Of a stretch of DNA of 64,000 bases, positions 5,118-59,955 are shown piece after piece. How positions within the stretch are numbered: the first letter of the stretch is position 1; each line of letters begins with the position of its first letter. The translations under genes and the position numbers were made by a program. The DNA comes from Deltaproteobacteria bacterium (GTDB lineage: Bacteria > Desulfobacterota > Binatia > UBA9968), in assembly GCA_016874755.1 (NCBI GenBank), contig VGTH01000005.1:51547-115546 (forward strand), given 5' to 3'. Below the pieces are notes generated by a model. That model was not told where the DNA came from, made no database searches, and saw only the letters and a list, made by a program, of their open reading frames with translations.

Positions 5118-5136
5118 TCCGCGCTTTGCGGTTCGG

Positions 5137-5168
5137 AATCTCAGATTTCAAATTTCAGATCTCAAAGA
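5137..5168. repeat. copy of the aatctcagatttcaaatttcagatctcaaa word repeat between dnaN and the ICL/PEPM gene
   Basis: Identical 28-nt core to 59880-59907. Confidence 0.6.
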
Positions 5169-5177
5169 AGACATCTG

Positions 5178-6041
5178 CTAGCTTTTATATTTCGCATCGA
5201 GAGCGTATTTTTCATTTAATCCGACGATCGCATTAAAATCGTCAAAGGCCATCAGGCGATCCAAGATCGCCAACGTCGAGCCGTCGCGCCGCAGGGTGGT
5301 GTAAACTTCGGTCAACGATTTCGCCACTGAATAGAGTGGCGCCAGCGGCCAGACGATTAGCTCAAAGCCCAAATCTTTCAGCTCATTGGGACCCATCAGC
5401 GGGGTTACGCCGCGTTCCAGCATGTTGGCCACCAGCGGGCCGGGCACCTGGCCTGCAATCTCGCGCATTTCTTCCTTCGATTCTGGCGCTTCGATGAAAA
5501 CTGCATCGGCACCAGCGCTTTTGAAAGCGATGCCACGATCGATCGTGTCTTTTAAGCCGAGCGCCTGGCGCGCGTCGGTGCGCGCAACGATGAAGAAATC
5601 GCTGTCGCCTTTGGCTTCGACGGCGGCTTTGAGCTTTTTCAACTGTTCGTCGATTGGAATAACCTGCTTGCCCTTCATGTGGCCGCAGCGTTTTGGCCAG
5701 ACCTGATCTTCAAGAAACATGCCGGCGGCACCGGCGCGGGTGAGATCTTGCACTGTGCGGATGACATTGATGGCGTTGCCGTAGCCGGTATCGGCGTCGA
5801 CAATGACCGGGGTTTCGACAACAGAACAAATCCGCTGTGCGGCTGCCACCACCTCGGTCTGGGTAAGGAGACCAAAGTCAGGTTCGCCGAGGAGCGTCGC
5901 CGATAGGCTGTAGCCGGTGATGAAGATGACTTCAAAACCGGCGCGGGCTGCGATCTTGGCGCTCAGGGCGTCATAGACGCCTGGCATGATGAGCTGGCCT
6001 TTAGTTTCTAAAGACTGGCGAATGAGGTTCCCTTTGCCCAT
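5178..6041 (-). CDS. isocitrate lyase/PEP mutase family protein (2-methylisocitrate lyase / carboxyvinyl-carboxyphosphonate phosphorylmutase-like)
   Basis: GVYDALSAKIAARAGFEVIFITGYSLSATLLGEPDFGLL...DADTGYG...KRCGH motifs of the ICL/PEPM superfamily. Confidence 0.8.
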   Translation of the reverse strand: MGKGNLIRQSLETKGQLIMPGVYDALSAKIAARAGFEVIFITGYSLSATLLGEPDFGLLTQTEVVAAAQRICSVVETPVIVDADTGYGNAINVIRTVQDLTRAGAAGMFLEDQVWPKRCGHMKGKQVIPIDEQLKKLKAAVEAKGDSDFFIVARTDARQALGLKDTIDRGIAFKSAGADAVFIEAPESKEEMREIAGQVPGPLVANMLERGVTPLMGPNELKDLGFELIVWPLAPLYSVAKSLTEVYTTLRRDGSTLAILDRLMAFDDFNAIVGLNEKYALDAKYKS

Positions 6042-8633: not shown

Positions 8634-8703
8634 GAGTCGAGGATAGAAGATCGAGGATTGAGGATCGAATGCTATCCTCCATCTTCTATCCTCTATCCTG
8701 AGC
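8634..8703. repeat. large imperfect hairpin with reiterated GAGGAT words between the CoA-ligase and aldolase genes
   Basis: gaggatagaagatcgaggat ...15 nt... atcctccatcttctatcctc is a 19/20 inverted repeat; gaggat occurs four times. Confidence 0.6.
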
Positions 8704-10261
8704 TTTTGCTTCTTAAGCGGAATCTCTGAATCTTACCTGTAACCGTCTTCGGCAGGTCGTCGACGAACTCAACCCAACGCGGATACTTATAGGGCTGGAG
8801 TTTCGCTTTGACGTGGTTTTGCAATTCAATGCGCAACTGGTCGCTGGCTTTAAACTCGCTCTTGAGCAGCACGAAAGCTTTCGGCTTGAGCAGGCCGTCG
8901 GAGTCGGTGTCGCCGATGACGCCGGACTCCAAAACTGCCGGATGTTCCATCAAGATGTTTTCAATTTCAATCGGCGAGACCCACAGGCCGCCGACCTTCA
9001 TCATGTCGTCGGAGCGGCCGCAGTACCAATAGTAGCCCTCGGCATCTCGGTAGTAGGTGTCGCCGGTCTTGAGCCACTCGCCCTGCATCATGCGTTTGGT
9101 CTGCTCGTGTTTGTTCCAATAATAAACCGCGTTGGCGTCGCCTTTGACCAGCAAGTTGCCGGTTTCACCCACCGGGACTTCGCGACCGTCGTCGTCGACG
9201 ATCTTGGCTTCGAAGGCTGGCGTCACTTCGCCGCTGCTGCCGGCTTTGGCTCGGCCCGGTCGGTTGGCCAAGAAATCGTGGGTCGCTTCGGTGGAGCCGA
9301 CGACGTCGAGTAATTCCAAGCCGGTTTTTTCTTTCCATTGGTGGAATAGAGCCGGCGGCAGCGGTTCGCCGGAGGACAGGCAGATGCGCAGCGAGCTCAT
9401 GTCGTATTTTTTTTTGATGCGGAGAAACCTGGCAAACAGCGTTGGTACTGAAAAAAAGAAGGTCGGTTTATACTTGTCGATGACCTGAAGAATTTTTTCC
9501 GGATCGGGCTTTTCCGGCCAAAGTACTGTCGAAGCACCGAAGCGGAAGGGGAAGTACAAAGAATTCCCCAAGCCGTAGGAGAAAAACATCTTTGATGCCG
9601 AAAAGCACAGGTCGTTCTCGTTCATGCTCAACACTGGCTTCACAAACAGATCGCTGATGTTGATCATGTCGTGCTGCAGGTGCACGGCACCCTTCGGGCT
9701 GCCGGTGCTGCCGGACGTATAGCCCCAGAAGCAGACATCGTCTTTGGTGGTCTTCGCGGCTTCGAGCTTGTCCGAGCTTTGGGCGATCAGCTTCTCATAC
9801 GATAGCGCCTTACCCATGGGCGTGCCGACGACGACGATGTGTTTTAAGAATGGCGTGTTGTCCCAGATCTTCTCGATCTCAGGCAGCGTCGACTCGTGCA
9901 CGACAATGGCGCGAGCGCGGCTGTCGTTGATCAGATATTCGTAATCCTTGGCGAACATCCAAGGATTGGTCGGCACGGCGACGGCGCCGATCTTGATGGC
10001 GCCGAAGAAGGTGTAAGCAAATTCCGGCGAATCCGGCAGAATCACCAGCACGCGGTTTTCGATCTCGATGCCAAGATCTTTCAGCGCATTGCCGGTGCGG
10101 TTAACGTTGGCAAAAACTTGTTGATAGGTGATCTTCTGGTCTTGGTAGTAGATGGCGACTTTGCCGCCACGCCCCTGTTTGATGTTTTCATCAACAAAGG
10201 TCGTGGCGGCGTTGTAGATGTCGGGTAAATCGACGTTCATCCTAATGATTTCAGATTCCAA
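8693..10261 (-). CDS. benzoate-CoA ligase family AMP-forming acyl-CoA synthetase
   Basis: YTSGSTGSPKGAVH, GEWLKTGDTYYRD and the C-terminus PYKYPRWVEFVDDLPKTVTGKIQRFRLR closely resemble BadA/BclA-type ligases. True start could be the internal MNVDLPDIYN. Confidence 0.9.
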   Translation of the reverse strand: MESEIIRMNVDLPDIYNAATTFVDENIKQGRGGKVAIYYQDQKITYQQVFANVNRTGNALKDLGIEIENRVLVILPDSPEFAYTFFGAIKIGAVAVPTNPWMFAKDYEYLINDSRARAIVVHESTLPEIEKIWDNTPFLKHIVVVGTPMGKALSYEKLIAQSSDKLEAAKTTKDDVCFWGYTSGSTGSPKGAVHLQHDMINISDLFVKPVLSMNENDLCFSASKMFFSYGLGNSLYFPFRFGASTVLWPEKPDPEKILQVIDKYKPTFFFSVPTLFARFLRIKKKYDMSSLRICLSSGEPLPPALFHQWKEKTGLELLDVVGSTEATHDFLANRPGRAKAGSSGEVTPAFEAKIVDDDGREVPVGETGNLLVKGDANAVYYWNKHEQTKRMMQGEWLKTGDTYYRDAEGYYWYCGRSDDMMKVGGLWVSPIEIENILMEHPAVLESGVIGDTDSDGLLKPKAFVLLKSEFKASDQLRIELQNHVKAKLQPYKYPRWVEFVDDLPKTVTGKIQRFRLRSKSSG

Positions 10262-10295
10262 ATTATCTGGAATCTTGAATCTGTAATTTGGAATG
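10245..10295. repeat. related AT-rich palindromic word repeat between the ALDH and CoA-ligase genes
   Basis: gatttcagattccaaattatctggaatcttgaatctgtaatttggaat contains nested inverted repeats (ttccaaatta / taatttggaa; cagattc / gaatctg). Confidence 0.55.
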
Positions 10296-11917: not shown

Positions 11918-13066
11918 ATGGCGCGAAACGGCTACAAAATCTTTGATGCCGATACCCATGTCCGCCCCGATGCCGACTTGCTCGAGCCCCACATGGCGGC
12001 TGCAGAGCGCGCCAAGTTGGCCCAGTACGAAAAATTTCGCGCCAAAAACAAAGACGGCGCGGTCACTTATTTAATGGGCGAGCGCTCCTACAAGCGGCGG
12101 CTGGGCTTGGCCGCGGACGCGACGCCAGAGAAAAACGAATACATGAGCGGCTACAAACGGCACCAGCACGGCAAGCCCAACCCGCTATGTGAGCGCGACC
12201 CGGCCGTGCGCATCGAAGACATGGATCGCGAAGGCGTCGACGTCAATCTCATGCTGCCGTCGGGTTGGTTCGGCTGTTGGACGACGATTGACGACGTGAG
12301 TCTTGAGACCGCGGTCTACGAAGCCTATCACCGTTGGATGGCGGACTATTGCGCGCAATTTCCAAGCCGCTTAAAAGGCGTGATCCTGGTGGCGGCGCGC
12401 GATATCAAAACTTCCCTGGCGGAGTTGCATCGCGCTGCCAAAGAGTCCTGGCCTTTGGCTGTGTTTGTCTACGCACCCTATCAATTTCCGCTCGACCATC
12501 CCGACCTGGAACCAATCTGGCAAGCGGCGGCCGATTACGATCTGTCGATTGCGCTGCACACCTTCACTGTCATGCCACCCTACGCGCCGGGCGGGCTCGA
12601 TTCTTGGGACAACCTCTGGCTGCAGCGCTCGGCGGCGCACCCCTGGTGCGGTCAGCGCAACATGGCGTCGATCATCGGCGCTGGCATAATGGACCGCTAC
12701 CCGAACATCCGCGTCGGTACGTTGGAGGCAGGCCACGGTTGGCTACCGGCCTGGGTCAATCGCCTGGAAGAGCACACCAAGCTCTGTCCCGAGGCGTTGC
12801 CGCCGCTCAAGCAAACGATTCGCGACTATGTGACTGGCGGCCGCTATTTCCAGAGCATCGAGGTTTCTGAAGGCGCGGCGATCACCCAGGGCGTGATCGA
12901 TCTCCTCGGCCCCGATGTGCTCATGTTCGGCTCGGACTATCCACACGGTGAGAGCTGGTTTCCGGTGTCGGTGGAGAGCGTGCTCGGCTGGAAGCTAAAA
13001 GACAGCGATATGCGCAAACTGATGTGGGACAACGCGCTGCGCTATTACCGGCGCTACTCGGAATGA
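11918..13066 (+). CDS. amidohydrolase-2 (ACMSD/LigW-like metal-dependent hydrolase/decarboxylase) family protein
   Basis: MARNGYKIFDADTHV N-terminus and the TIM-barrel His/Asp pattern. RBS aaggag lies 7 nt upstream of the ATG. Confidence 0.85.
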   Translation: MARNGYKIFDADTHVRPDADLLEPHMAAAERAKLAQYEKFRAKNKDGAVTYLMGERSYKRRLGLAADATPEKNEYMSGYKRHQHGKPNPLCERDPAVRIEDMDREGVDVNLMLPSGWFGCWTTIDDVSLETAVYEAYHRWMADYCAQFPSRLKGVILVAARDIKTSLAELHRAAKESWPLAVFVYAPYQFPLDHPDLEPIWQAAADYDLSIALHTFTVMPPYAPGGLDSWDNLWLQRSAAHPWCGQRNMASIIGAGIMDRYPNIRVGTLEAGHGWLPAWVNRLEEHTKLCPEALPPLKQTIRDYVTGGRYFQSIEVSEGAAITQGVIDLLGPDVLMFGSDYPHGESWFPVSVESVLGWKLKDSDMRKLMWDNALRYYRRYSE

Positions 13067-41559: not shown

Positions 41560-41932
41560 AGGATTATCCGCCGTTTCTTGCAGCGTTAAAAAACGTATCG
41601 TCAACGCACGTACCAAGGCAGCCCGTGCAATCAATCGCGAATTGGTTTTGCTGTATTAGGACATCGGTCGGGGGATCCTCGAAAAGCAACAGACCGCTGG
41701 ATGGGGCGATTCCGTGGTAGAGCGGCTTGCTGCAGACTTGCGCACCGCGTTCCCCGATATGAGCGGTTTCTCTGTGGCGAATCTGTGGCGGATGAAACAG
41801 CTTTTTCTCGAACACAACTCACCGGAATTTCTCTCACAAGCTGTGAGAGAATTGGTTGCGGCCGAGCAACGCTTCACAGGGTGCAACGTCAAGAAACTCT
41901 TGACTGCCGGCGATATCACTTCAGTTGCCTAG
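41560..41932 (+). pseudogene. YhcG/DUF1016-family PD-(D/E)XK nuclease gene remnant with an in-frame TAG and C-terminal truncation
   Basis: ...KKRIVNARTKAARAINRELVLLY*DIGRGILEKQQTAGWGDSVVERLAADLRTAFPDMSGFSVANLWRMKQLF matches the conserved DUF1016 N-terminus (aNsaLVlLYWeIGrrIledqq...GFSrrNLryMRqFy). The stop at 41657-41659 replaces the conserved Trp. The ORF ends after about 125 codons. Confidence 0.6.
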
Positions 41933-42029
41933 AGATCTAAAAGATGGTCTGAAAAATAGATATTTTATGCGTATGCTGAATCGTTACCCTGCCAACTAAC
42001 GCCGCTTTCTACTACTCGCAACTAGCCTC

Positions 42030-42497
42030 ATGGGACTTCAGTTGATTGGTGCGCCGCATTTCGCGCGGGCCCAAGAAACAATTCATCTCGCGCTGCCTTC
42101 TAAGGCTTTTCAATTTTCCATCGCCCGTGACCGCGGTTATATGAAGGAAGAAGCGCCTGGCGGCCCTAGCCAGCGCCTGCCTCGGCCTCGCCACCAATTG
42201 CAGTCCTACAAATCAACTAACGAGGCCTTTCCTGAAGACCTTACAGGCATCCCGGCAACGAATCTCACCGACCCTTGGGGCAATGCCTACGAATATCTCA
42301 AGATCGAAGGCGCGGATACAAAGTCCAAGGGCAACATGCGCAAGGATAAAAATCTGGTGCCAATCAACTCCGACTTCGACCTCTACAGCAAGGGCGCGGA
42401 CGGCAAATCCACCGCGCCGCTCACGGCGTCCGCAAGCCGAGACGATGTAGTGCGTGCCAACGATGGGCGCTATTTCGGGCTTGGAGAAAATTACTAG
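42030..42497 (+). pseudogene. chimeric ORF: NMT1-SBP N-terminal fragment fused to a fragment resembling a GspG pseudopilin C-terminus
   Basis: Residues 15-43 (IHLALPSKAFQFSIARDRGYMKEEA) parallel LQQIIFPLAVERGYMKEEDIDL of the intact NMT1 paralogs. The C-terminal part DPWGNAYEYL...FDLYSKGADGK resembles GspG pseudopilin C-termini. No prepilin leader is present. Confidence 0.35.
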
Positions 42498-42715
42498 CAG
42501 GTTCTGTCGTCGGTCGAAATGAAAAGCAGCGTTATCGACCTCTGAGACCTACCGTATCGCAGAGATTGCACGCCGAGGCACGAAAGCGCGATGCCACGAG
42601 ACGCGCTTCGCGAAATACGCTCCCGTCTCTCACCCCGGGAGTTTGAGAGTTTTTCACAGCCATGTACACTGGGCGCCGGATCGATTGTGCTTGATTCAAT
42701 CGTTCGAGGCACTGA

Positions 42716-44167
42716 ATGGCTGCACGCACTGGCGCTCAATATCTTGCCGGGCTCGCCGACCAACGTGAGATTTGGTTTGATGGTCGGCGTGTCGCAGGCG
42801 TTGTCCAACATCCCATCCTCGGCCGGATGGCGCGCACGCTTGCCGACTTATACGATCTTCAGTGCGATCCGGCGCTGCGCGAGCAACTGACCTATACTTC
42901 GCCGTCATCCGGCACATCTGTTGGGCTTTCATTTCTGCAGCCGCGCAGCGTCGATAATTTGATCCGCAAACGCGGTATGTATAAGCACTGGGCCAACTAT
43001 AGCGGCGGCATGCTCGGGCGCACACCGGATTATTTGAACGCGATTCTTGCCGGGTGTGCTTCGGCCAAGTCCTATTTTGCGAAGAATGGCGCGGAGTACG
43101 CCGAGCGAATCGTTGCCTATTACGAGCACTGCCGCGAACAGGATCTGTGCGCGACCCACACGTTTGTCGACCCGCAGATCAATCGCGCGCGCAGCCAGTC
43201 CGAACAGCGCGATCCGACCGTGCCGCTGCATATCGTCGGCGAGAATGCCCAGGGACTCATAGTAAGCGGCGCGCGCATGCTGGCGACGTTGGCGCCGTAT
43301 TCAGACGAGCTCTACGTTTTTCCTTCGCCGTCGCGCACGCAGCAGAGCGATGCGCCCAAGTTTGCGTTCGCGTTCGCAGTGCCGGTGGCCACGCCGGGGC
43401 TGAAATTCATCTGTCGCGAGAGCCTCGACAGCGGCGGTGCGCCGAGCGACTATCCGCTGACGGCGCGCTTCGAAGAAATGGACGCCGTGGCGGTGTTTCA
43501 TGAAGTGGTCGTGCCCTGGGAGCGGGTCTTTCTCAAAGGCGATATTTCGCTCTGTAATAGATTGTTTCGCGAGACGCCGGCGTTTCTCCACGGCATTCAT
43601 CAGTTCACGGTTAAGAACCTTGCCAAGGCGGAATTCATCCTCGGTGTGGCAACTCTGGTTGCGGAAGCGATCGGCCGCATCGAGATGGCGGAGTACCAAC
43701 GCATGCTCGGCGAGATCGTCGACGTCGTCGAAACGCTGCGCGCCTACATCCGTTCCGCGGAGGCCGACGCTATCACTGACGAGCACGGCTTTGTTCATCC
43801 CAATCCCAATATCATGTCGACGGCGCGCAATTATTTCCCGAAGGCTTATCCGAGAATCGTCGAAATTCTGCAGCTGATCGGTTCGAGCGGCTTGATGGCG
43901 ACGCCCAGCGAGAAAGATTTGACTGCGCCGGCGCTGTCGGAAGACATCGACCGCTACTATCAATCGGCGACGTTGATGGGCAAAGAGCGGGTGCAGCTAT
44001 TTCGCTTGGCTTGGGATCTTTCTTGCAGCGCCTTTGCCGGTCGTCAGGTTTTGTACGAGAGATTTTTCGCGGGCGATCCGTTCCTATTGATGGCGAGCCG
44101 GTTTACGAGCTATGACCGAAGCGAAGCCGTGGCCCGGGTCAAGAAAATGCTGGGGAGAAGCGCGTAG
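42716..44167 (+). CDS. HpaB/TftD-family two-component flavin-dependent aromatic monooxygenase, oxygenase component
   Basis: YSGGMLGRTPDYLNA, IVSGARMLATLAPYSDE and MDAVAVFHEVVVPWERVFL align with conserved HpaB blocks. 483 aa. Confidence 0.8.
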   Translation: MAARTGAQYLAGLADQREIWFDGRRVAGVVQHPILGRMARTLADLYDLQCDPALREQLTYTSPSSGTSVGLSFLQPRSVDNLIRKRGMYKHWANYSGGMLGRTPDYLNAILAGCASAKSYFAKNGAEYAERIVAYYEHCREQDLCATHTFVDPQINRARSQSEQRDPTVPLHIVGENAQGLIVSGARMLATLAPYSDELYVFPSPSRTQQSDAPKFAFAFAVPVATPGLKFICRESLDSGGAPSDYPLTARFEEMDAVAVFHEVVVPWERVFLKGDISLCNRLFRETPAFLHGIHQFTVKNLAKAEFILGVATLVAEAIGRIEMAEYQRMLGEIVDVVETLRAYIRSAEADAITDEHGFVHPNPNIMSTARNYFPKAYPRIVEILQLIGSSGLMATPSEKDLTAPALSEDIDRYYQSATLMGKERVQLFRLAWDLSCSAFAGRQVLYERFFAGDPFLLMASRFTSYDRSEAVARVKKMLGRSA

Positions 44168-44188
44168 CGAATCAACGCAGGAGCAAAC

Positions 44189-45172
44189 ATGAACATCGAT
44201 TTTCACGCCCATATTTATCCCGAAGATTATCTGAAGAAGCTCGAAGCCTCGACCGGCGACGTGCGCATCGAAACCGACGCCAAGGGGCAGAAGTGGATAT
44301 TGAGCATGGGCGCCAAGGCCGGGCCGATCACGCCCGACTTTTTCGACGGCGACACGCGAGTGGCGCGGATCACGGAGAACCGGGTCGACATGCAGATTTT
44401 GTCTTCGCCCCATCCCGGCGTCGACCGCTTCTCGCCCAGTGAAAGCGCTGAGATGAGCCGGATCATCAACGATGGCATCGCGACACTGGTGCGGAAATAT
44501 CCAAAACATTTTCAAGGCGTGTGCATGCTGCCGCTGATCGATACCAAGCTGGCGTTGAAGGAATTAGATCGCGCCGTGCTTGATTTGGGATTGAAGGGCA
44601 TGTGTATGCTGTCCAACGTCGCAGGAAAAACCTCCGATGCCGATTTCTTGCTGCCGGTCTACGAGCGCACCCAGGAGCTAGGTGTGCCGATTTTTATTCA
44701 CCCGACCACGCCGCTGGGCGCGGCGGTGATGCAGGAATGGCGGCTGGCGATCATTCTCGGCTTTGAGTTCGACATCGTTTTGTCGGCAACGCGGCTGGCC
44801 TATTCGGGTATTCTCGATCGTTTTCCCGAATTGAATTTTGTGATTTCCCATCTCGGCGCTGGCATTCCGTTCCTCGCCGGGCGCATCGACCGTGGCTACT
44901 TCGATCCGACCTGCGGTATCAAGACAAAGAAACCGACGTCGGAGTACCTGCGCGATCTCTATTGCGACACTGTGTCATTTTACCAACCGGCGCTGCAGAT
45001 GGCGTACGATTTCTACGGTGCGGAGCGAATGGTTCTAGGCAGCGACTTCCCGCTGATCATCGGCGATTTGCCCGGTGCCGTGCCGAGCATCGAGGCGATG
45101 AATATTCCGAACCGGGAGAAGGAAAAAATTCTCGGCGAGAACGTCAAACGGCTGCTCAAGTTGAGTATTTAG
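44189..45172 (+). CDS. amidohydrolase-2 family protein (ACMSD/decarboxylase-like)
   Basis: MNIDFHAHIYPEDYL and the TIM-barrel metal-ligand pattern. 22 nt downstream of the HpaB-like gene. Confidence 0.88.
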   Translation: MNIDFHAHIYPEDYLKKLEASTGDVRIETDAKGQKWILSMGAKAGPITPDFFDGDTRVARITENRVDMQILSSPHPGVDRFSPSESAEMSRIINDGIATLVRKYPKHFQGVCMLPLIDTKLALKELDRAVLDLGLKGMCMLSNVAGKTSDADFLLPVYERTQELGVPIFIHPTTPLGAAVMQEWRLAIILGFEFDIVLSATRLAYSGILDRFPELNFVISHLGAGIPFLAGRIDRGYFDPTCGIKTKKPTSEYLRDLYCDTVSFYQPALQMAYDFYGAERMVLGSDFPLIIGDLPGAVPSIEAMNIPNREKEKILGENVKRLLKLSI

Positions 45173-45212
45173 GTCGCAAGTTGAAAAGCCATCGAAGCCA
45201 AGCAGGGAAAGC

Positions 45213-45349
45213 ATGAGCTACAACGGATATACCGTCATCGACGCTCACCACATGCTAAACCGGTAGCCGCTATGGCCCGTCGCCCCCGCGTATTTGCTCC
45301 AGGATTGCTCTATCACGTCATCGTCCGCGGCAATCAGCGGGGAACATAG
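45213..45349 (+). mobile_element. remnants: amidohydrolase-2 N-terminal fragment followed by an IS200/RAYT-like transposase N-terminal fragment
   Basis: 45213-45263 MSYNGYTVIDAHHMLNR* (compare MARNGYKIFDADTHV). 45272-45349 MARRPRVFAPGLLYHVIVRGNQRGT*, the hallmark start of IS200-like/REP-associated tyrosine transposases. Confidence 0.45.
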
Positions 45350-45546
45350 GGAAAGCTCCTTTCGCTTTCAGCACGCCGATAATCAACAAAGGCCAATCAC
45401 GGGCTCACACGCCGTCAAGGAAAATCGGAAATCATAAACGAATGCAGCGGCTTACCATCCGTAGCGCAAGTGTGAGCATTTGTGCTATAAGGCAAGAGCT
45501 TGAATTGCATGTGTTTTCTAATGCTTGGGCGAAAGGAAGGTTACAC

Positions 45547-46560
45547 ATGACGTTTTTCAGAACGCCGTACCGACGAAAATCCTCAATTAAATATCAAACT
45601 ATTCTTTGCGCGGCGATCATACAGGCATTGATGGTTCACGGTGTAGTCAATATTTTCGCAGCCGAGGTGACACTGGCGCTACCGGCCAAGAGTCTTCAGC
45701 AGATCATCTTTCCGCTCGCGGTGGAGCGCGGCTACATGAAGGAAGAAGATATTGATCTCAAGATTACTTTCATGGAACCGGCGCCGAGTATGCAAGCGAT
45801 GCTCGCAGAGAGTGTGCAAATCACCGCGGCGGGCGGTAGCGCTTTGATCGCGATTGCGCGCAGCAACTATCCTGCGAAAGTCGTACTCGCGGTCAACGAT
45901 CGGGTGCACCAGTGGGTGATCAGTAGACCGACCGTTGGCAGTATCAAAGACCTCAAGGGCAAAGCGTTGGCCACTACCGGTGTGGCGTCGCTGGCGACTT
46001 TCATGTTCAAGAACATCATGCCCAAGTACGGCCTTGACCCGAGCAAAGATATCACCTTCACCGATCCGGGCGTGAACAACCAGGCGATGGCTGTCATGTC
46101 GGGAGCGGTGGAAGCGGCGATCGTCAGCGTCGAACAGCGTTACGCGGCGCTCGACAACGGCATGAAGGAACTCATGTATCTCGGCAACGAAGTCAAAAAC
46201 TCCTGGGGCACAACGGCCGCCTCGGAGAAATTCATGAAAGAGCAGCCTAGAGTCGTGGCGGGATTCATGCGCGCGACGTTGAAAGCCTTGCGCTTGATCA
46301 AGCGCGATCGCGCCGGCACCATCGCGGCGTTTGCCAAGTTCTCCGGCTTGCCGGTGGCGACCTCGACGCGGCTCTACGACGATTTGATCGGTTCGTTTAC
46401 GGCCAATGGCGCGGTGGATGAAGAAACCCAAAAGAATGATCTCGGGGTGATCCGCCAGGTGCTCGACGCCAAGGAAGCGCTGGCGCCGGCGCGCGCCTTC
46501 GACTTTAGCTTTGCCATCGAGGCCGACCGGCAGTTGACGAAGCTGGGGTGGAAACCATAA
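45547..46560 (+). CDS. NMT1/THI5-like periplasmic substrate-binding protein (NitT/TauT family), orphan
   Basis: Signal peptide then LALPAKSLQQIIFPLAVERGYMKEEDIDLKI. Start at ATG 45547 after aaggaagg. No cognate permease or ATPase adjacent. Confidence 0.8.
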   Translation: MTFFRTPYRRKSSIKYQTILCAAIIQALMVHGVVNIFAAEVTLALPAKSLQQIIFPLAVERGYMKEEDIDLKITFMEPAPSMQAMLAESVQITAAGGSALIAIARSNYPAKVVLAVNDRVHQWVISRPTVGSIKDLKGKALATTGVASLATFMFKNIMPKYGLDPSKDITFTDPGVNNQAMAVMSGAVEAAIVSVEQRYAALDNGMKELMYLGNEVKNSWGTTAASEKFMKEQPRVVAGFMRATLKALRLIKRDRAGTIAAFAKFSGLPVATSTRLYDDLIGSFTANGAVDEETQKNDLGVIRQVLDAKEALAPARAFDFSFAIEADRQLTKLGWKP

Positions 46561-46707
46561 AAGAAAGTATTAAACGCGGAAAATGGAAAGCGGAAATTCG
46601 CGGGTTCTGACGGGCGACTTTTCCGTTTTCCGGGTTTCTGCTTTCCGCTTTTTGTTTGGCCAGTGTTAACGATCATGGGTATCAACTTACTGATTGGGAG
46701 GTAATTC

Positions 46708-47802
46708 ATGCCTGGCATAATCGACGCTGACACCCATATTGCCGAGAGCGAAGCGATGTGGGCGATGATGGACAAGGACATGTACCCGCGGCGACCGGTT
46801 TTGATGAAGAGCCCGGAAGACACACTGTATGGGCCGCGCAATGCTTTCTGGCTGATCAACGGCAGCATTTTTCCCAAGCCCAATGGCAAAGGCAGCTTTC
46901 GTTTGATCACGCCATCGGCTTCCAAATTGGAATTATCGCGCGGCGATATTCATCTCGCTTACCGCGAGATGACCGACATTCCCGGTCGGTTGGGCGACAT
47001 GAACAAGCTGGGCATCGAAACCCAGGTTGTGTTTCCGACGCTGTTTCTAATCTACATCACCGACGACGTCGCTTTAGATGTGGCGATGGCGCGGGCTTAC
47101 AACCGCTTTATCGCGCAGGCCTGCGCCAAATCGGGCGGCAGGATGCGTTGGGTGGTGGTGCCGCCGCTGCACTCGGTGGAAGAGACGGTGAAGGAAATCA
47201 AATGGGGCAAAGACAACGGCGCGGTGGGCGTGTTCTTCCGCGGCATCGAGGGGCAGCGCACGCTCGACGATCCCTATTTCAATCCGGTTTACCAAGCGTG
47301 CAGCGACACTGGCATGCCGGTGTTGATTCACACCGGCGCCGGCTGCCCGCTGTTTATCAACTTGTTCGACGTCGAGCGCAACCATACCTTCGGCCACAGC
47401 CGCATCCAGCCGATCTTGGCGTTCCGCGATTTGATCCACAACAAGATTCCTGAACAGTTTCCCAAGCTGAAATTTGGTTTTCTCGAAGCGTCGGCGGGCT
47501 GGGTGCCGTTCATGATGCACATCCTGAAACGCTTGTTCAAAGAAAAGTGGAAATTTTCCAAAGACGCCGACATGTTCCGCGAATATCGCATCTTCATCGC
47601 CGCGGAAGCTGACGAAGACATCAACTACATCGCGCAGTTCACCGGTGCGGACCACCTGATGATCGGCTCAGACTACGGCCATCAAGATCCCTCGGAGGAA
47701 CGCCAATTGGTCGCCGCCATGCGAGCGCGCGAAGACATCCCGACGAGACTGACGGACAAGATGTTCTTCGACAATCCCAAACTGCTCTATCCTCTGAACT
47801 AG
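46708..47802 (+). CDS. amidohydrolase-2 family protein, third paralog
   Basis: MPGIIDADTHIAESEAMW and the TIM-barrel hydrolase pattern. 364 aa. Confidence 0.88.
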   Translation: MPGIIDADTHIAESEAMWAMMDKDMYPRRPVLMKSPEDTLYGPRNAFWLINGSIFPKPNGKGSFRLITPSASKLELSRGDIHLAYREMTDIPGRLGDMNKLGIETQVVFPTLFLIYITDDVALDVAMARAYNRFIAQACAKSGGRMRWVVVPPLHSVEETVKEIKWGKDNGAVGVFFRGIEGQRTLDDPYFNPVYQACSDTGMPVLIHTGAGCPLFINLFDVERNHTFGHSRIQPILAFRDLIHNKIPEQFPKLKFGFLEASAGWVPFMMHILKRLFKEKWKFSKDADMFREYRIFIAAEADEDINYIAQFTGADHLMIGSDYGHQDPSEERQLVAAMRAREDIPTRLTDKMFFDNPKLLYPLN

Positions 47803-48006: not shown

Positions 48007-48978
48007 ATGAAGCTAAAACTCTCTCTCACGATCGCGCTGCAATTTGTCTTTTTGTCTGCGCTTGGCGCCCAGCAGCTCCAGACCGTCAACTTCGCCACGC
48101 CATCGCGAAGCTTTCAGTTGGCGATCTATCCGATCGCGCAGGAGCGCGGCTACATGAGGGAAGAAGGCATCGATCTGCGCGTTATCAACGTCGCGCCAAC
48201 CACGAGTGTGCAGGCGTTGCTCGGCGGCGACGTGCATTTCACCGGCGCCGGCACCAGCGCGGCGCTTGGAGTGGCGCGCTCGAACATTCCCGTGAAAGTT
48301 GTGATCGCGACCAACGACCGCGTGCTGCAGTGGCTGGTGGCTAATCCGAAGATCACCAGCGTGAGAGATCTCAAAGGAAAGAGGATAGCCACCACCGGCG
48401 TTGCGGCGATCGCTACGTTCATGCTCAAACAGATTCTCGCCAAGCATGGGCTTGACGCCAACAAAGACGTGATTTTTCTCGACCCGGGACAAGGCAACCA
48501 GTTAACCGCTTTGCTGTCGGGCGCCATGGATGCGGCGGTGTTAGGTATCGATCAGCGCTATCCGGCGATAGACAAGGGCATGAAGGAGCTGTTCTCGTTC
48601 GGTAACGAAGTGAAAAACTCCTGGGGCACGCTGGCGACCACCGATAGGCTCATCAAAGAAAATCCGAAGATGATCGCCGGCTATTTGCGCGCGAGTTTGA
48701 AAGCGCTGCGCTACATGCGCCAGGATCGCGACGGTACCATCGCGTCGGTGGCGAAGTTCTCAAACATTTCTCGGCAACTTGCCGCGCGCACTTACGATGA
48801 CCTGCTCGGCACCTTTACACCCAACCTGACCGTCGACGACGAGACTCAGAAGAACGATCTCAACATCATTCGCCAGGTCGTCAACGCCCCGGACGCGGTG
48901 CCGAACAATCGGGTCTACGATTTTAGTTTTGCCCTGGAAGCCGATCAGCAGCTAAGCAAGACGGGGTGGAGGCCCTAG
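48007..48978 (+). CDS. NMT1/THI5-like periplasmic substrate-binding protein, paralog of 45547..46560
   Basis: Collinear blocks with the 45547 gene (ERGYMREEGIDL, RDLKGKRIATTGVAAIATFMLK, NEVKNSWGT). Confidence 0.8.
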   Translation: MKLKLSLTIALQFVFLSALGAQQLQTVNFATPSRSFQLAIYPIAQERGYMREEGIDLRVINVAPTTSVQALLGGDVHFTGAGTSAALGVARSNIPVKVVIATNDRVLQWLVANPKITSVRDLKGKRIATTGVAAIATFMLKQILAKHGLDANKDVIFLDPGQGNQLTALLSGAMDAAVLGIDQRYPAIDKGMKELFSFGNEVKNSWGTLATTDRLIKENPKMIAGYLRASLKALRYMRQDRDGTIASVAKFSNISRQLAARTYDDLLGTFTPNLTVDDETQKNDLNIIRQVVNAPDAVPNNRVYDFSFALEADQQLSKTGWRP

Positions 48979-59540: not shown

Positions 59541-59645
59541 AGATTACAAATTCCAAATTCCAGATTGTTCGCGACCGCGGGGCTTAATTTGAAATCTTGA
59601 ATTTGGAATTCGTAATTCCGAGCGAAGCGAGGACCAGCGAGGACA
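59541..59645. repeat. AT-rich palindromic word repeat (attacaaattccaaattccagatt / inverted copy) ending in attccgagcgaagcgagga
   Basis: 24-bp imperfect inverted repeat (59544-59567 versus 59593-59616). Related copy at 59866-59955. Both flank the FmdB-like gene. Confidence 0.65.
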
Positions 59646-59865: not shown

Positions 59866-59955
59866 AAGCGAATTTCAAATCTCAGATTTCAGATCTCAAA
59901 CTCGGATTTTTGTCCGCATGTTTGAGATTCCGAGCTCAGCGAGGACTCTGCGGAT
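59866..59955. repeat. second copy of the AT-rich word repeat (aatttcaaatctcagatttcagatctcaaa) ending in attccgagctcagcgagga
   Basis: Shares the tctcagatttcaaatttcagatctcaaa word with 5137-5168 and shares related word motifs with 10245-10295. Confidence 0.65.

Follow-up and report, generated by a model that had tools for sequence, protein, structure and literature searches.

Gene content and synteny of the locus

The DNA covered by this study is a 64,000-nt stretch of an uncultured Binatia genome, and "the window" refers here to the whole of that stretch. Within it, a 374-nt spacer (45173-45546) lies between the stop codon of AH1, which ends at 45172, and the start codon of SBP1 at 45547. The surrounding plus-strand genes are HpaB (42716-44167; TIGR02309 HpaB-1, 527 bits), AH1 (44189-45172; Amidohydro_2, Pfam E 9e-31), SBP1 (45547-46560; NMT1 binding protein by Pfam), AH2 (46708-47802; Amidohydro_2 by Pfam), and SBP2 (48007-48978; NMT1 binding protein by Pfam), the last three being 85.6%, 87.1%, and 75% identical in nucleotide sequence, respectively, to their counterparts in locus L033. 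The alternating order of two amidohydrolase and two binding protein genes had been recognized in the first-pass annotation, and the Pfam assignments agree with it, as the Amidohydro_2 and NMT1 domains fall in the places claimed. The spacer is identical in all three of the independently assembled contigs that span it fully (two Logan and one JGI) and is therefore not an assembly artefact or chimera; a fourth contig breaks off within it, at 45213. It has no repeat in common with the remainder of the window. Rfam and tRNA scans of the region returned no family and no tRNA, while a promoter and terminator scan of the region yielded neither a full sigma-70 match nor a convincing terminator.

Orthologues of AH1 (79-91% identical) are present at 27 genome loci labelled either Binatia or "uncultured delta proteobacterium". 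In 12 of these, the gene next to AH1 on the upstream side is HpaB, and the two-gene block, both members of which are intact in the window, recurs in Binatia genomes. The genes downstream of AH1 are variable and unrelated, and an SBP1 orthologue occurs there in none of 23 loci. DNA homology between the window and the 27 AH1 loci opens at 42708-42716 when HpaB is present, or else at 44178-44189, and it ends at 45144-45172, at the AH1 stop codon. The orthologues of SBP1 (83-89% amino acid identity) are followed by AH2, SBP2, DUF748, and Ada/AlkA, which is the same order as found in the window. SBP1-AH2-SBP2 occurs in 10 loci, where other genes, in no case AH1, come before it. The upstream neighbor of SBP1 is another SBP gene in L033-36 and the P0056 contigs, a gene referred to here as geneX in L039-41, a divergent amidohydrolase-like gene in L042, and, as judged by eye only, an aminotransferase-like gene in L038. 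A Cupin gene located upstream in the window, in L037, and in the P0056 contigs was considered as a potential sign of common descent, which the lack of a match between the proteins did not bear out. The genes had previously been divided into two consecutive modules, each with one amidohydrolase and one binding protein. This arrangement does not hold, since AH1 pairs with HpaB, and SBP1-AH2-SBP2 is a separate conserved block. Given the separate histories of the AH1 and SBP1 blocks, the spacer can be identified as a synteny breakpoint. Rearrangement has recurred upstream of SBP1, a hot spot in Binatia at which relatives carry at least four different upstream neighbors.

An amidohydrolase-like fragment in the spacer

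The first 40 nt after the AH1 stop codon (45173-45212) have no detectable relatives. They are followed by two short ORFs, both of which had been noted previously as N-terminal gene fragments; both exist, with coordinates slightly corrected to 45213-45266 and 45272-45349. Neither the 17-codon nor the 25-codon ORF is present at the 10 loci with an SBP1 orthologue or at the 27 with an AH1 orthologue, and no homologue of either fragment was found near the AH1 or SBP1 orthologues. The first ORF runs on the plus strand from an ATG at 45213 to a TAG at 45264-45266 and encodes MSYNGYTVIDAHHMLNR*, a total of 17 codons. As a profile-free test, this peptide was compared with the N-termini of 80 Amidohydro_2 representatives, all relatives of the window gene at 11918-13066 and including such examples as MSYQGKLVIDADTHV and MAYHGHVVIDADSHM. 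It obtained a mean local score of 23.9, compared to 14.8 +/- 1.6 for 300 shuffled versions, none of which reached this mean, and a maximum local score of 41, compared to 24.4 +/- 3.4 for the shuffles. An N-terminal motif pattern, drawn up with the matching sequences already known, was also searched against 545 kb in six frames, where it matched only the ORF at 45213 and two amidohydrolase-type N-termini, namely the window gene at 11918 (Pfam Amidohydro_2) and a 27-residue start at a contig end in L042. By these comparisons, 45213-45266 resembles amidohydrolase N-termini, with the assignment based on 13-17 residues. The amidohydrolase-derived part probably comprises codons 1-13 only, ending near codon 13.

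The fragment reads V-I-D-A-H-H-M at the position of the D-x-H-x-H motif, such that Met replaces the second metal-binding His. The TIM-barrel body of Amidohydro_2 (PF04909) is absent, as the ORF ends after 17 codons and its read-through translation has no Pfam match. A database search with a padded version of the peptide found no protein with three 5-residue words in common and no close full-length relative. We also considered whether the ORF might be a diverged leader of the neighboring transposase gene, which was rejected because an nhmmer leader profile returned nothing, pairwise z values were below 2, and the ORF is amidohydrolase-like. A few bases (TGCTAA and CGGTAG) bear a possible resemblance to leader motifs in L048, L061, and L072. 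On the minus strand of the close relative L042 (3-83), the gene divergent from SBP1 begins with MPFKGHTIIDGDGHV before being cut by the contig end. This start is of the amidohydrolase N-terminal type also seen in the window fragment, and it lies on the opposite strand.

A transposase gene fragment of the TIRYT type

The second ORF, also on the plus strand, extends from an ATG at 45272 to a TAG at 45347-45349 and encodes MARRPRVFAPGLLYHVIVRGNQRGT* (25 codons), with its stop codon in foreign sequence. Its first 23 codons (45272-45340) correspond to the start of a TIRYT-type Y1 transposase gene and are identical to many family members at 23 of 23 residues. When seven full-length relatives were used as tblastn queries, residues 1-23 alone were aligned to 45272-45340 (E 6e-10 to 3e-9), and there was no other match in the 64 kb. 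A search with the read-through-padded peptide retrieved 49 proteins having first 23 residues 87-100% identical to the fragment; these residues of MARRPRVFAPGLLYHVIVRGNQRGT occur at 100% identity in many database proteins, and several of the relatives are labelled RayT by JGI. The fragment thus contains the conserved N-terminal strand (..YHV..RGN..) of TIRYT / TnpA-Y1 subclass 2.1. The HUH motif and catalytic Tyr (Y---NP) are both absent, as homology stops at codon 23 and no frame of the window matches them, and the window likewise has no C-terminal DnaA_C/HTH-like extension. No leader homology was detected in the 100 nt 5' of the fragment using either the nhmmer leader profile or pairwise scores, no GGGGTCAG / GGGGWSAS inverted repeat was found in the 64-kb window with 2 mismatches allowed, and no convincing Shine-Dalgarno sequence precedes 45272. 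TIRYT sequence is also absent from 38 related loci by tblastn. All 23 of the retained codons match the family consensus, which suggests a recent event, and such an intact stretch could hint at something besides neutral decay. Moreover, the relic starts within about 20 nt of its own ATG, an unlikely endpoint for a random deletion. Both observations weigh against the origin by decay proposed below.

Family members were retrieved from 29 metagenome loci using a degenerate DNA pattern, and the intact genes among them encode proteins of 292-309 aa. A full-length relative matched Pfam Y1_Tnp (E 4.8e-18), and its C-terminus weakly matched Bac_DnaA_C (E 3.8e-5). It scored 78.9 bits against NCBIfam REP_Tyr_transpos (cut-off 80) and only 20.8 bits against transpos_IS200 (cut-off 55). 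The relatives share a conserved leader consisting of GGGGTCAGAC(T/A)T about 65 nt before the ATG, followed by TTGACA and a -10 box, and they carry the inverted sequence GTCTGACCCC just past the stop codon. TIRtrons and their TIRYT genes have been described with the inverted-repeat motif GGGGWSAS (Di Nocera et al. 2013, PMC3733652), while TnpA-Y1 subclass 2.1.2 is characterized by a DnaA_C-like tail and the absence of REPs (Quentin et al. 2018, PMC6006769). TIRYT/TIRtron is this same subclass 2.1.2 (PMC6006769) and is also RAYT group 1 of Bertels et al. 2017. From the features of its relatives, which include a length of about 300 aa, a DnaA_C-like tail, and GGGGTCAG inverted repeats, we assign the family of the fragment to the TIRYT/"TIRtron" type. 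The 23 residues are the family N-terminus, and the GGGGTCAG repeats of the relatives fit GGGGWSAS. However, the window copy has no HUH motif, catalytic Tyr, HTH tail, leader, or inverted repeats and is not a working member.

The fragment had been described in the first-pass annotation as the start of an IS200-like or REP-associated transposase. This was accurate insofar as it derives from a Y1 (HUH) tyrosine-transposase relative of RAYTs, but it is neither IS200 nor a classic REP-associated RAYT, and the stub is better placed in the TIRYT/TIRtron class. Classic RAYTs are about 150-190 aa, are usually single-copy, and have on either side GTAG-type REP hairpins, which also occur scattered across the genome (Nunvar et al. 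2010, PMC2817692; Bertels and Rainey 2011, PMC3116915). The family of the fragment belongs to the same Y1/HUH superfamily, except that it bears terminal inverted repeats rather than REPs. Similarly, it shares the Pfam Y1_Tnp fold family with IS200/IS605 TnpA, whereas the relatives have double the length and carry inverted repeats in place of subterminal hairpins.

A link had also been proposed between the fragment and REP-like hairpins elsewhere in the window. Long intergenic hairpins are indeed present at 5136-5180, 8639-8699, 10247-10281, 46575-46650, 59543-59616, and 59870-59900, but no TIRYT-type repeat exists in the window, and these hairpins are unrelated stems with a heptamer periodicity. 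They are composed of 7-nt periodic repeats, such as CAGATTT/CAAATTT, GAGGATA/GAAGATC, and GGAAAGC/GGAAAAT, and most are located at the 3' ends of genes. They have no common core, differ from one another, and are unlike GGGGWSAS. At the same spacers, relatives have other periodic hairpins or none, and the SBP1-AH2 gap is 41 nt in L033 versus 147 nt in the window. GTAG-type REP hairpin flanks, the classic RAYT trait, were not found, and nothing links the window hairpins to the transposase fragment.

The region upstream of SBP1

Alignment to L039 identified the start of the lost divergent geneX on the minus strand at 45339-45361. The remnant comprises AAGGAG (45361-45356), an ATG (45347-45345), and then Phe-Pro, such that three codons are kept of a gene that begins MFPNI when complete. 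It abuts codon 23 of the transposase fragment with a 2-nt overlap. By itself, the local geneX block has a p of about 0.02. The adjoining plus-strand sequence at 45362-45546 aligns as the ancestral SBP1 upstream region. Taken together, 45339-45546 is collinear with the L039 geneX/SBP1 intergenic region, having 149 of 231 columns identical and a global alignment score of 44, as compared to -5.7 +/- 5.7 for shuffles; a local core at 45395-45489 has a z of about 6.6. As judged from this alignment, 45339-45546 is the old divergent promoter region of SBP1. Within it are a conserved extended -10-like sequence, TGCTATAAG (45483-45491), and, ahead of the SBP1 ATG at 45547, a Shine-Dalgarno sequence. 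The TGCTATAAG region is probably the SBP1 promoter. The conserved part of the spacer starts only downstream of both short ORFs. In the comparison with L038, the SBP1 ATG is the exact point at which DNA homology sets in.

Relics at the left edge of the HpaB-AH1 block

Three further plus-strand relics are located between a luciferase-like gene and HpaB. The first (41585-41929) is a dead DUF1016/YhcG-like fragment detected by six-frame translation, which is limited to the N-terminal domain and is interrupted by an in-frame TAG at 41657; with Trp restored at this stop, it matches DUF1016_N (Pfam E 1.2e-25). The second (41958-42152) consists of the first 67 codons of an NMT1 binding protein gene, SBP_b, with an in-frame stop. 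It was detected by tblastn using residues 2-67 of SBP_b from L033 (E 1.8e-15) and is 82% identical in nucleotide sequence to L033 5048-5141. In the closest relatives, SBP_b is the gene immediately preceding SBP1, and the left synteny break falls at about 42152/42153. The third (42222-42494) is a GspG/pseudopilin-like C-terminal piece with a weak Pfam T2SSG match (E 6e-4 to 8e-4) that is below the curated cut-off. The SBP_b relic and the GspG-like piece are fused in frame within a 155-codon ORF (42030-42497), which is called a hypothetical protein. The rest of neither geneX nor SBP_b was found elsewhere in the 64-kb window. Overall, six relics lie within about 4 kb.

A possible inverted SBP relic after AH1 was considered as well, as 45178-45200 matches 42094-42116 in inverted orientation at 19 of 23 positions. 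The match was reached by none of 200 shuffled 23-mers, but a comparison of all pairs across 12 kb would be expected to yield about one of this kind. It is not robust to multiple testing, the relatives do not support it, and it was rejected. The two positions are the two edges of the HpaB-AH1 block.

Origin of the junction

The comparisons described above show the identity of each piece, the position of the breakpoints, and that the two blocks have separate ancestries. The spacer is most likely a non-coding mosaic scar at a synteny breakpoint. The blocks that meet there, HpaB-AH1 to the left and SBP1-AH2-SBP2 to the right, are each conserved on their own and would have been brought together in one Binatia lineage, with the intervening DNA formerly holding an amidohydrolase gene, a TIRtron, and geneX. 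Illegitimate, microhomology-type deletions would then have whittled this DNA down to short pieces, and the survivors would be codons 1 to 13-17 of the amidohydrolase gene, codons 1-23 of the transposase gene, and the ribosome-binding site plus three codons of geneX. The transposase piece would have been stripped of its own promoter and inverted repeat in the process. Erosion presumably halted at selected sequence, at the AH1 stop codon to the left and the SBP1 promoter to the right, and the old region upstream of SBP1 survives intact. We infer the order of these events, their deletional nature, and the inertness of the pieces. As no parent copy of either the amidohydrolase or the transposase fragment was found, the microhomology at the junctions and the age of the events are likewise deduced. 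The SBP1 promoter and ribosome-binding site would be the sole remaining function within the spacer.

Synteny breakpoints in bacteria are generally known to retain pseudogene remnants, which are short 5' or 3' pieces of several unrelated genes between intact, selected genes. Such remnants show in-frame stops, and their neighboring genes vary between relatives. The spacer matches this description in substance and is unusual only in its relic density. The layout of alternating amidohydrolase and binding protein genes with a transposase stub can be read as the decayed join of two unrelated operons, an ordinary rearrangement scar. For annotation purposes, the spacer should be treated neither as coding sequence nor as a mobile element. 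Its significance by itself is small, and a probable SBP1 promoter can be marked within it.

An unlikely explanation is that a TIRYT/RAYT element, or recombination between copies of it, moved or fused HpaB-AH1 next to the SBP array, leaving the 23-codon piece as the remains of the agent. The fragment is located exactly at the right-hand breakpoint, and in other metagenomes the family behaves as repeated or mobile DNA, with conserved GGGGTCAGAC...GTCTGACCCC ends and many truncated copies, including a partial 5' copy directly before a full copy in both L067 and L055. However, the window relic has neither the inverted repeat nor the leader, no GGGGTCAG occurs in the 64 kb, and there is no second relic at the left breakpoint. 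The truncation points in the family are also scattered, with none clustered at codon 23, and the transposase/geneX junction resembles a 2-nt microhomology join rather than an element end. In addition, class 2 Y1 genes have no reported evidence of autonomous mobility (PMC6006769). The first-pass annotation had suggested a duplication or recombination mediated by a RAYT-associated element. Of this, the recombination junction stands, whereas the duplication does not, and a causal role for the element is not supported, as the fragment has none of its own end sequences. There is an even slimmer chance that the 23-codon piece was left by TIRYT activity and is not simply a passive remnant, which would mean that TIRtrons are active in these uncultured lineages. 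If this were true, the short 5' stubs seen in L067, L055, and L072 would be products of abortive or self-targeted events, the same kind of event would have joined the unrelated catabolic gene blocks of the window, and the locus would provide the first sequence-level evidence of a "domesticated-looking" Y1 class reshaping genomes.

Tandem duplication of an amidohydrolase-NMT1 binding protein module, with the fragments being leftovers of the join, is highly improbable. The alternating gene order is real, and SBP1 and SBP2 are paralogues with 55% amino acid identity, but AH1 and AH2 are just 24% identical over 245 aa. A DNA-level comparison of the two proposed modules detected no similarity between AH1 and AH2 and only patches of 73-85% between SBP1 and SBP2, whereas the genes are far closer to their orthologues elsewhere (75-87% in nucleotide sequence) than to their supposed twins. 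AH1 also travels with HpaB rather than with an SBP gene, and the relatives have SBP-SBP1-AH2-SBP2 without AH1. Since SBP1, AH2, and SBP2 are each closer to their L033 orthologue, any SBP duplication would have to be old and would not have included the amidohydrolases. It is just as hard to credit that the short ORFs are functional, for instance as leader peptides or upstream ORFs regulating SBP1, because even though both are ATG-initiated and uninterrupted and the 23 transposase codons have no non-consensus change, there is no convincing Shine-Dalgarno sequence before 45272, the ORFs are missing from the 10 SBP1-orthologue and 27 AH1-orthologue loci, no Rfam family was found in the region, and the conserved part of the spacer begins after them.

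Truncated TIRYT genes in other metagenomes

A truncation hot spot at codon 23 of the TIRYT genes was considered and rejected, as the break points are scattered in 49 short family proteins. The only cluster among these is at codons 60-61 and results from a foreign insertion. The TIRYT genes in P0004, P0010, P0029, P0030, L055, and L070 are all broken at one HUH-motif codon (..CLMPNH|), about 180 nt into the gene, and the interrupting sequences have a common foreign end that is rich in TTATGTG repeats and has the shared tail LCGAPHKTCYVKLRIM. Rfam had no match for the interrupting sequence, and the shared break looks like site-specific insertion by another element.

At about 10570-10976 of L067 and 1-330 of L055, a partial 5' TIRtron copy lies directly in front of a complete left end and gene. 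Each partial copy comprises the inverted repeat and leader, to which 21 codons are added in L067, and L055 has an array of AAAAGGGGTCA cores upstream. This layout suggests local multiplication or self-targeting of the TIRtron left end. Lastly, a Deltaproteobacteria MAG (L072, 2935-3150) contains a TIRYT relic that ends after codon 24, which is nearly the same point as in the window, and, unlike the window copy, it keeps the GGGGTCAGAC repeat and leader.
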